From: a virus
Taxonomy: Duplodnaviria; Heunggongvirae; Uroviricota; Caudoviricetes
Length of the DNA: 4,042 nucleotides
Direction: 5' to 3' (one strand)
Virus record (IMG/VR): IMGVR_UViG_2541047498_000022
Coordinates: 1-4,042 of that record
The notes below the pieces were generated by a model. That model was not told the DNA's origin. It saw only the letters and a program-made list of their open reading frames with translations, and did not search any database. A program made the position numbers and the translations under genes. Positions 1,845 to 2,207 of this stretch are shown one piece after another. Positions within the stretch are counted from its first letter, which is position 1; each line of letters opens with the position of its first letter.

Positions 1845-2207
1845 ATGCTGAAACAGCAGGATATGACAGAAACCGCCAGAGTTGTGTTTGATGAATTAAG
1901 CGTCACCGAACCGGCGACGGTCGGGGAGATTGCGCAGAATACGTACCTTTCACGCGAGCGCTGCCAGTTAATACTGACCCAGCTGGTTATGCGGGTCTGG
2001 CAGACTATCAGTTCGGTTGTTACAGACGCCTTCAGTCCTGAAGGCTTTTTTATTTGTGGTAAATGGGCGGCTGGTGGGTGTAAGGGGCACCCACCAGCCA
2101 TCTGCTCATGCGTTGGGTTCACAAGCAAACCTCAGGCCCACTGCTTTGCGCAAAAGCAGAATGAGCCTATCAGAGACAGGCTTAATGATCCATGCTTAAT
2201 ACTGTAA
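1845..2207 (+). CDS. Hypothetical small protein, possible N-terminal helix-turn-helix; 3' extent doubtful
   Basis: ATG at 1845 with an AAGGG Shine-Dalgarno-like motif 9 nt upstream. The N-terminal ~60 aa (…TVGEIAQNTYLSRERCQLILTQLVMR…) look like a helix-turn-helix fold. The same frame reads through a canonical intrinsic terminator (2028-2055) and a 12-bp perfect inverted repeat (2069-2099) before stopping at 2205-2207, 16 nt inside the methyltransferase ORF. The Cys-rich C-terminal half may be non-coding read-through. Confidence 0.35.
   Translation: MLKQQDMTETARVVFDELSVTEPATVGEIAQNTYLSRERCQLILTQLVMRVWQTISSVVTDAFSPEGFFICGKWAAGGCKGHPPAICSCVGFTSKPQAHCFAQKQNEPIRDRLNDPCLIL
2028..2055 (+). terminator. 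Canonical rho-independent terminator (GCCTTCA-GTCC-TGAAGGC + TTTTTTATTT)
   Basis: 7-bp perfect stem at 2028-2034 / 2039-2045 with a 4-nt loop, immediately followed by a T6 run (2046-2051) and ATTT. It lies inside the annotated small ORF. Confidence 0.55.
2069..2099. repeat. 12-bp perfect inverted repeat (GGCTGGTGGGTG / CACCCACCAGCC, 7-nt spacer) with a Chi octamer in each arm
   Basis: Read directly: the left arm 2069-2080 is the exact reverse complement of the right arm 2088-2099. GCTGGTGG (Chi) is at 2070-2077 on + and its complement CCACCAGC at 2091-2098. There is no T-run after it, so it is not a terminator. Confidence 0.9.
2141..2159. promoter_or_regulatory. Near-perfect palindrome CTGCTTTGCGCAAAAGCAG about 35 bp upstream of the methyltransferase start; candidate operator
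   Basis: CTGCTTT (2141-2147) and AAAGCAG (2153-2159) are reverse complements around a GCGCA centre; the core TTTGCGCAAA is itself palindromic, with one extra A. Position and symmetry suggest a dimeric DNA-binding site. Confidence 0.35.

Follow-up and report, generated by a model that had tools for sequence, protein, structure and literature searches.

We analysed a 4,042-nucleotide (nt) stretch of viral DNA (positions 1 to 4,042 of the IMG/VR virus record IMGVR_UViG_2541047498_000022, here called the window) around an open reading frame (ORF) of 120 codons which overlaps the start of a DNA methylase gene. This ORF is ordinary insofar as it arises as an artefact from a pseudogene that is already known. 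According to the reading we favor, with a probability of about 0.85, it is a by-product of this pseudogene within a conserved module that carries a structured leader upstream of the methylase. The module consists of a winged-helix gene, a hairpin at its stop codon, the leader and the methylase gene, and it is found across Enterobacterales prophages. In the window its parts are the following:

1845–2207, plus strand: ORF of 120 codons, with 49 native codons followed by 71 codons that are out of frame or non-coding
1845–2041, plus strand: pseudogene of a 65-residue winged-helix protein, from the alignment with intact copies and from annotation by the NCBI Prokaryotic Genome Annotation Pipeline (PGAP)
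2028–2052, plus strand: terminator-like hairpin with stem 2028–2034 paired to 2039–2045, loop GTCC at 2035–2038 and T6 at 2046–2051
2063–2080 with 2088–2109, plus strand: leader helix P1, from model mapping and compensatory changes
2116–2191, plus strand: leader domain 2, from model mapping and covariation
2192–3250, plus strand: gene for an orphan beta-class N6-adenine DNA methyltransferase of 352 residues (N6/N4 DNA methylase family PF01555, 149 bits)

The small ORF and its frameshift

The ORF at 1845–2207 is open for 120 codons, overlaps the start of the methylase ORF by 16 nt and ends at a TAA 13 nt beyond the methylase ATG. Alignment with intact copies revealed that a single G is absent from the window, and likewise from the O157 copy, after codon 49 (ATG 1989–1991), between positions 1991 and 1992: intact copies read ATGGCGGG (ATGGCG...) where the window reads ATGCGGG. 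When the G is restored the frame reads ...LTQLVMAGLADYQFGCYRRLQS and ends at the ancestral stop codon TGA 2039–2041, whose three bases also begin the 3’ arm of the terminator hairpin. Programmed frameshifting was considered and rejected, since inspection of the sequence revealed no slippery sequence at the deletion site.

The region is present in 2,159 of 5,426 complete Escherichia coli genomes, where it is annotated either as a 65-residue “hypothetical protein” or as a “TrmB family transcriptional regulator” pseudogene. The copy in O157:H7 strain Xuzhou21 is 99.6% identical to window positions 1560–2091 and carries the PGAP label ‘TrmB family transcriptional regulator, frameshifted’; the intact gene in strain NS-NP030 is 198 nt long. 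An exact 51-mer spanning the deletion occurs in 349 of the 5,426 genomes and lies, among the matches listed, under a PGAP feature named ‘TrmB family transcriptional regulator’. The deletion is therefore a real inherited allele and not a sequencing error. In O157 the same deletion results in an ORF of 79 codons that stops at a TAG in the P1 loop, and the Sakai copy (ECs_1086, prophage Sp4) has been called as a 79-residue protein. The window reaches 120 codons because GTAAGG replaces GTTAGC in its P1 loop, by which the in-frame TAG is lost. Among 140 loci the 120-residue form was seen in the window only. Products of 120 or 79 residues proposed by gene callers, such as ECs_1086 in Sakai, are thus misleading; a literature search on ECs1086 returned nothing on this gene. 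Among the full-length matches listed for the complete E. coli genomes, none combined the frameshift allele with an intact leader and methylase, and the best of them, at 97.7% identity, carry the additional base. The window may therefore have arisen by recombination that joined a left part of the Sp4 type to a right part with the methylase.

To describe the intact gene we used 24 loci from a set with one genome per species and more than 100 loci from viral contigs. About 124 of the 128 instances with the N-terminal motif encode 63–67 residues, with the end of the gene some 20 nt short of the leader core; three are cut short by premature stops, and the window alone reaches 120 residues. In the intact homologues about 150 nt separate the stop codon from the methylase ATG downstream. 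The diversity at codon positions 1, 2 and 3, taken over 94 distinct coding sequences, is 0.19, 0.16 and 0.40, and the ratio of nonsynonymous to synonymous polymorphism (pN/pS) is 0.30. The intact protein is under purifying selection. This selection ends at codon 65, past which the frame is no longer conserved, so that selection over all 120 codons, which a preliminary description of the window had named as the mark of a real full-length protein, was not found. Independent inactivation of the small gene was also observed, by an internal TGA at codon 18 in an O145:H28 prophage carrying the Shiga toxin (Stx) type Stx2a and by premature stops in one Mangrovibacter locus and one viral-contig locus; the methylase ORF remains open in all three.

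In profile searches the first 49 residues of the window ORF match phrog_331 (PHROGs, function not assigned; E = 2e-31). Residues 50–120 match no family in Pfam, NCBIfam or PHROGs, and the 120-residue ORF as a whole has no Pfam match at all. The intact 65-residue protein scores 18.0 bits against TrmB (PF01978; E = 0.0026), which is below the gathering score of 25.6, and MarR_2, DprA_WH, HTH_24 and Rrf2 score nearly as high, all of them below threshold. NCBIfam gave no match near its cut-off, the Pfam search no match of the XRE type (HTH_3), and PADLOC no match for the small protein and otherwise just its generic model of a type II methylase. An AlphaFold2 model based on 26 homologues has a mean confidence (pLDDT) of 89.6 and contains helices at residues 4–17, 26–33 and 37–49 as well as a beta-hairpin at 53–62, together a complete winged helix; this fold is a confident prediction and not a solved structure. 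Foldseek matched the model to the winged helices of IclR, MarR/OhrR, SelB and Z-alpha with TM-scores of 0.7–0.8, and further to the dimerisation domains of O-methyltransferases; the SelB match is bound to SECIS RNA (the selenocysteine insertion sequence). The modelled fold is generic rather than specific for TrmB. Two Cys residues are conserved in the protein. The frameshift falls directly after the recognition helix and deletes the wing. The suggestion that only the N-terminal 60 or so residues of the window ORF are domain-like was thus right in spirit, the intact domain having 65 residues, but only residues 1–49 are native in the window.

These observations bear on the possibility that the ORF encodes a genuine small regulator which is translationally coupled to the methylase, like the controller proteins of restriction-modification (R-M) systems. 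The frame is open, an AAGG sequence resembling a Shine-Dalgarno sequence precedes it, it overlaps the methylase start by 16 nt, and its first 49 residues belong to the winged-helix family phrog_331. However, this frame is found in one of 140 instances, all others stopping about 150 nt earlier; it stems from a 1-bp deletion that is annotated as a frameshift and yields 79 residues in O157; and it has lost the wing in exchange for 71 residues without family match. There is neither a helix-turn-helix (HTH) match of the XRE type nor a restriction enzyme gene. As the overlap is owed to the deletion, we regard a coupled regulator, which the preliminary description had listed first, as highly improbable.

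The stop-codon hairpin and the leader

The hairpin that ends the small gene has 7 pairs at 2028–2045, 4 of them G-C, followed by TTTTTTATTT, and folds at −10.5 kcal/mol (z = −3.4). Judged by its sequence it has all features of an intrinsic terminator. A hairpin of 6–8 bp containing or abutting the stop codon occurs in about 42 of 46 distinct sequence contexts. Its arms vary (GCCTTCA/TGAAGGC, GCCTCCA/TGGGGGC, GCTGCCA/TGGCAG and GTTGCCCC/GGGGTAAC were found), and outside Escherichia the tail behind it is UUUCUGCUGUG-like. What is conserved family-wide as a core is this predicted hairpin at the end of the small gene.

The leader between the stop codon and the methylase is non-coding, because its homologues differ by insertions and deletions of 1 nt and stops are present in all three frames in 37 of 84 distinct leader sequences. 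It is nevertheless constrained: the mean pairwise distance is 0.170 in the leader, whereas third codon positions of the genes on either side reach 0.398 and 0.371 in these loci, and across genera the spacing between the leader core and the methylase ATG stays at 128–130 nt. Two candidate reading frames were rejected. The mini-ORF MGGWWV(L) starting at ATG 2064, which had been considered as a leader peptide with Trp codons, ranges in length from 3 codons to over 50, lacks a Shine-Dalgarno sequence and has lost its ATG in divergent loci; an ORF of 60 residues at 2017–2199, considered as a second protein frame, is open in about half of the distinct sequences and broken by 1-nt insertions and deletions. 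A scan of the whole window against Rfam 15 with an E-value threshold returned no family for the leader. Its output comprised a match to the small RNA (sRNA) STnc100, three tRNAs and otherwise chance-level matches, the sole match within 2028–2192 being P26 on the minus strand (24 bits, gathering score 36).

The preliminary description had noted the ORF, the terminator, a 12-bp inverted repeat and a GCGC palindrome, and all of them are present where it placed them. The inverted repeat is perfect over 12 nt (2069–2080 with 2088–2099, 7 nt between the arms), and the GCGC-centred palindrome has arms at 2141–2147 and 2153–2159 with a core palindrome at 2145–2154. The structures fold far better than shuffled sequences: a 53-nt segment at the 12-bp hairpin folds at −34 kcal/mol compared with −18.0 ± 2.7 for shuffles (z = −5.9, 0 of 200 as good), and for 2060–2194 z is −5.1. 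The same architecture was obtained from single-sequence folds of the E. coli, Salmonella and Providencia leaders and from RNAalifold. In the predicted structure, P1 has an outer stem (2063–2068 with 2104–2109) and the 12-bp hairpin as its inner stem. Domain 2 is closed by helix P2 (2116–2126 with 2180–2191), which ends 1 nt before the methylase ATG, and contains P3 (2134–2140 with 2162–2168) and a tip hairpin formed by the GCGC palindrome (2141–2149 with 2153–2159). No Shine-Dalgarno sequence was found before the methylase ATG.

We built a covariance model of the leader from 85 distinct sequences (alignment A5) and a more diverse alignment (A6) from a scan anchored only on the Providencia-type methylase. 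In A5 96.9% of the cells are paired, and 13 pairs have changed on both sides compared with 3.6 ± 1.2 in shuffled alignments (0 of 500 reach 13) and at most 8 in slid controls. For A6 we obtained a covariation score of 0.257; shuffles gave 0.172 (0 of 500) and slid partners no more than 0.083. Against the shuffle controls these values look more significant than they are, since both alignments were fitted to the model and consist of related sequences. Base-pair swaps were found in P1 (GC:30 versus AU:12; GC:30 versus UA:7 and AU:5), in the covarying outermost pair of P2 (AU:33, GC:20, GU:15) and a further P2 pair in A6 (AU:33 versus GC:10), and in P3 (CG:43 versus UA:20; in A6 AU:17, GU:16, GC:10). 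In addition P1, P2 and the tip hairpin contain many G-U and U-G pairs (UG:35/83, GU:62/83, UG:17), which argues for a plus-strand RNA rather than a DNA palindrome. By these comparisons the leader is a conserved, covariation-supported structured RNA of about 130 nt. Another 18 more divergent loci have a stop-codon hairpin and a P1-like hairpin of different sequence, followed by a shorter 3’ domain.

A function at the level of DNA was considered as well: the 12-bp palindrome could be a Chi recombination hotspot or site of module exchange, or the GCGC palindrome an operator for a dimeric winged-helix protein. Chi (GCTGGTGG) is present on both strands in the P1 arms, at 2070–2077 and 2091–2098, and a back-to-back Chi palindrome (CCACCAGCTGGTGG) lies inside the methylase gene at 2884–2897. 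Of 85 distinct leaders, 74 have retained the plus-strand copy in the 5’ arm of P1, whose orientation is presumably that of active Chi on the lambda map. Sakai prophage Sp4 has the same frameshifted gene as the window, followed by psrA (ECs_1087, an AraC-type regulator of type III secretion) in place of the methylase; homology to the window breaks in the 3’ arm of P1 at about 2091, and in loci of the DUF3927 type at about 2081. The Sp4 break inside P1 means that the hairpin coincides with a module-exchange junction. Furthermore, a perfect 16-bp palindrome (GCTTTAGCGCTAAAGC) is found in many loci, and the fold of the protein is of a DNA-binding type. On the other hand, the Providencia-type arms GACTGTAAAGGTG/CACCCTTACAGTC and the arms GGCAGG/CCTGCC pair without Chi, T-to-C or T-to-A variants destroy Chi while the pairing stays, and Chi is kept in only 27 of the 43 distinct leaders of the diverse set. 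Since pairing survives the loss of Chi, we demoted Chi as the conserved function of the 12-bp arm. In a DNA palindrome, or on the opposite strand, the G-U and U-G pairs would not match, and the whole 130 nt are conserved rather than an 8-mer. Taken together, a DNA-level function appears quite improbable. The related suggestion of the preliminary description, that the ORF is a gene fragment created at a mosaic joint, stands insofar as the gene is not intact and a real junction (that of Sp4) lies close by; the cause is a frameshift within the gene and no recombination joint.

A further possibility is a ribosome-coupled attenuator, in which a ribosome at the stop codon inside the hairpin prevents termination, so that the frameshift allele would de-repress the methylase. 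In its favor, the stop codon is placed in or next to the hairpin loop in most contexts despite the differing arms, a geometry known from ribosome-coupled attenuators such as pyrBI, and the shifted frame of the window runs to 13 nt past the methylase ATG. Against it, what the ORF encodes is a folded protein that has been conserved, unlike a sensor peptide; outside Escherichia the U-tract is weak; and in late transcription a polymerase modified by the antiterminator Q should ignore terminators. No alternative antiterminator pairing was identified, though without a systematic search. We consider such an attenuator unlikely. Of the three readings that the preliminary description had offered, its attenuator-like leader comes nearest for the region past 2028, where the hairpins do lie in a conserved non-coding leader; it fails for the upstream ORF, which is a folded protein and no leader peptide, and for the lack of an identified antiterminator.

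The module in its prophage context

The module is always located between a Q gene and the lysis genes, and the Q gene is of several unrelated types. Of 80 loci found in the scan anchored on the methylase, 76 have the winged-helix gene immediately ahead of it, and in 62 the covariance model placed the leader at its usual position. On its left side the module begins with a conserved block whose pattern (TTGCTG, a spacer, then AGAGTTAT(C/T)..TGTCAC) is kept from Escherichia to Mixta and Mangrovibacter. Left of this block the sequence changes with the Q type, and conservation starts abruptly at TTGCTG 1784. TTGCTG...AGAGTTAT was tried as the small gene’s own sigma-70 promoter and dropped, as its −10 element is poor and the promoter scan did not list it. 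In loci outside the Escherichia group CAGAGTTA is found again some 20 nt ahead of the methylase ATG. In some Stx2 phages (O145:H28 strain RM12761, 1720a-02) the whole module was observed between Q with the late promoter pR’ and the tRNA and stx2 genes.

By gene content and profile searches the window represents the start of the late region of a lambdoid prophage. Its features outside the gene, hairpin, leader and methylase are:

first gene of the window, ahead of Q: 3’ end of a rusA-type gene
217–588: Q antiterminator gene (PF06530, 175 bits)
740–1558, plus strand: AT-rich gene for an Rce1/CPBP-type intramembrane protease (G+C fraction 0.32–0.40 over 600–1800)
1639–1644 and 1661–1666, plus strand: putative late promoter pR’ with −35 element TTTACG and −10 element TATGCT, from homology to Sakai prophage Sp5
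1700–1721, plus strand: first hairpin with T6, from a scan for terminator-like sites (−9.0 kcal/mol), about 30–50 nt past the putative pR’ start
1784–1820, plus strand: conserved upstream block and left edge of the module, with TTGCTG at 1784–1789, a variable 12-nt spacer and AGAGTTATTGGTGTGTCAC at 1802–1820
3291–3540, plus strand: three tRNA genes (CAU, Arg-UCG, Arg-UCU)
3617–3807, plus strand: homologue of the sRNA STnc100 (Rfam, 138 bits, gathering score 47)

Window positions 1639–1721 align over 84 nt with the promoter region and first hairpin of Sp5 at 75% identity (E = 1e-8). In Sp5 the sequence TTTACG-N16-TATCAT is located exactly 258 nt 5’ of the T-run of the terminator tR’, with GUAUU at +173, a layout that agrees with the mapped pR’ start, RNase E site and 3’ end of the sRNA StxS (PMC7547250). 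By this homology late transcription in the window would start near 1673. A consensus promoter scan of the window did not list the promoter at 1639–1666. A hairpin with a U-run follows every type of Q gene in the related loci, and is found in Sp5 as well. Overall the window contains 11 terminator-like sites where 4.1 ± 2.1 are expected, and the strong terminator at 2028–2052 is situated about 380 nt downstream of the putative start. The sRNA HnrS (PMC13502914) is not relevant here, as it is encoded in other prophages (Sp9, Sp10 and Sp12).

Some side observations concern the neighboring genes. The protease gene sits between Q and the pR’-homologous sequence, which places Q about 1 kb from its expected promoter; at other loci Q is immediately beside it. 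The CAU tRNA is called Met by ARAGORN, and homologous loci annotate it as tRNA-Ile, ileZ. The three tRNA genes correspond to the ileZ-argN-argO cluster that precedes stx2 in Stx phages; no stx gene was found after the cluster within the available window sequence. The STnc100 match is full-length, lies just 3’ of the tRNA cluster and has a terminator-like hairpin of its own at 3777–3796.

Methylase expression and related systems

The methylase contains the catalytic motif DPPY near its N-terminus (residues 35–38) and the SAM-binding motif FMGSG towards its C-terminus (residues 310–314), as expected of an M.EcoGII-like beta-class enzyme. Among the ORFs of the window no restriction enzyme gene was found beside it, and the three tRNA genes follow. 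It shares 94% amino acid identity with the methylase of phage 1720a-02, an enzyme that has been listed as very similar to M.EcoGII (Murray et al., PMC5778455). M.EcoGII is a non-specific adenine methylase that is not expressed in the lysogen and is deleterious if constitutive (PMC5778455), and has been paired with Mom as toxic modification enzymes silent in lysogens (PMC12707154). Neither PMC5778455 nor PMC12707154 describes an upstream gene or a leader for M.EcoGII. The window methylase probably belongs to the M.EcoGII family and is presumably non-specific, toxic and silent in lysogens.

For the favored reading, a pseudogene by-product within a conserved module, we propose the following course of expression. 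The module would be transcribed from pR’. Unmodified polymerase that escapes the first hairpin would stop at the hairpin-terminator ending the small gene, and Q-modified polymerase would read on through it. The leader helix flush with an ATG that lacks a Shine-Dalgarno sequence would then limit or time the translation of the toxic methylase. Judging by its predicted fold and position, the leader most likely serves to restrain methylase expression after transcription. The winged-helix protein could be an RNA activator similar to Com, a DNA-binding regulator or something unrelated. As a speculation, ribosomes starting at 1845 in the window would traverse terminator and leader before they reach the stop codon 13 nt beyond the methylase ATG, and in the frameshift allele this passage could de-repress the methylase.

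Several findings weigh against this reading. First, about 8 distinct contexts have leader and methylase without a winged-helix gene and with unrelated sequence upstream; the protein is therefore not indispensable for the methylase, and the leader is tied more tightly to the methylase than the protein is. Second, the stop-codon hairpin is absent from Providencia-type loci, and a canonical T-run behind it is limited to Escherichia lineages. Third, besides the overstated shuffle significance, one helix of 2 bp has no support, being paired in 31% in A6. Finally, pR’ was assigned through 75% identity to a mapped promoter, the link to M.EcoGII runs through a 94% identical phage enzyme that is itself called ‘very similar’, and the regulatory role of hairpin and leader is one that we infer from their structure and position.

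The com-mom operon of phage Mu, with its translational activator Com, a stem-loop that inhibits translation and the toxic DNA-modification enzyme Mom, offers a close comparison for such an arrangement. In both cases a small gene (about 62–65 codons) immediately precedes a gene for DNA modification, a conserved RNA structure reaches up to the start codon of that gene, and expression is, or here would be, confined to late lytic growth. The predicted and covarying P2 helix, which ends 1 nt before the ATG, might occlude initiation in the manner of com-mom. In contrast, Com is a zinc-finger RNA-binding protein that binds the mRNA beside the stem-loop, whereas the window family is a predicted winged helix with its two conserved Cys residues; there is no sequence relationship, the genes overlap in Mu while a leader of about 150 nt separates them here, and the contexts without the small gene also set our module apart. 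C proteins of type II R-M systems share with the window family that a small HTH-type protein is encoded just upstream of an R-M-type gene. They are of the XRE type, bind C-box palindromes upstream of their own gene and time the expression of the restriction enzyme, whereas here we find a winged helix, no restriction enzyme gene and, in intact copies, no gene overlap. A palindromic box upstream of the small gene was not seen, judged by eye only.

The leader between pR’ and tR’ of Stx phages, which encodes StxS (PMC7547250), agrees with the window in its position downstream of Q, in its homologous promoter and first hairpin, and in the arrangement of a constitutive late promoter followed by intrinsic terminators that only Q-modified polymerase passes. 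In Sp5 and Sp15 this stretch is 258 nt long, does not code for protein and yields an Hfq-binding sRNA, compared with about 380 nt containing a protein-coding gene in the window. Homology to StxS as a candidate identity of the window transcript was dismissed, since it is limited to the promoter and first hairpin and the remainder is unrelated. M.EcoGII is likewise a beta-class methylase of about 350 residues on E. coli prophages; here the comparison was made via the enzyme of phage 1720a-02 and not with the M.EcoGII sequence itself. The TrmB regulators have given the small protein its NCBI name, the N-terminal winged helix of TrmB being its best, though weak, Pfam match; in contrast to them it has 65 residues, no effector or sugar-binding domain and a score below the gathering score. 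Leader-peptide attenuators differ in that the upstream ORF here is conserved, folded and under purifying selection.

Going further, the module might be a safety switch for a toxic, non-specific adenine methylase, similar to com-mom though its components are unrelated. Hairpin-terminator and leader would together hold the methylase in the off state, and the winged-helix protein would bind the leader RNA, as SelB binds SECIS hairpins, or sense the state of the DNA, and license translation late in lytic growth. The leader would then represent an undescribed class of cis-regulatory RNA that is widespread in enterobacterial prophages including Stx2 phages. This proposal is drawn by analogy and is tentative; we think the odds are against it in this full form.

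That the small gene of the window is a frameshifted pseudogene was known already, having been flagged by the NCBI pipeline. Our analysis adds the conserved three-part module, whose structured RNA leader is apparently undescribed. For the silence of M.EcoGII-type enzymes in lysogens, PMC5778455 and PMC12707154 describe no mechanism beyond that of a “late gene”, and the module makes this question testable. In several Stx2 phages the terminator of the module would constitute an extra barrier between the late promoter and the toxin genes, and may affect the basal transcription of stx2.

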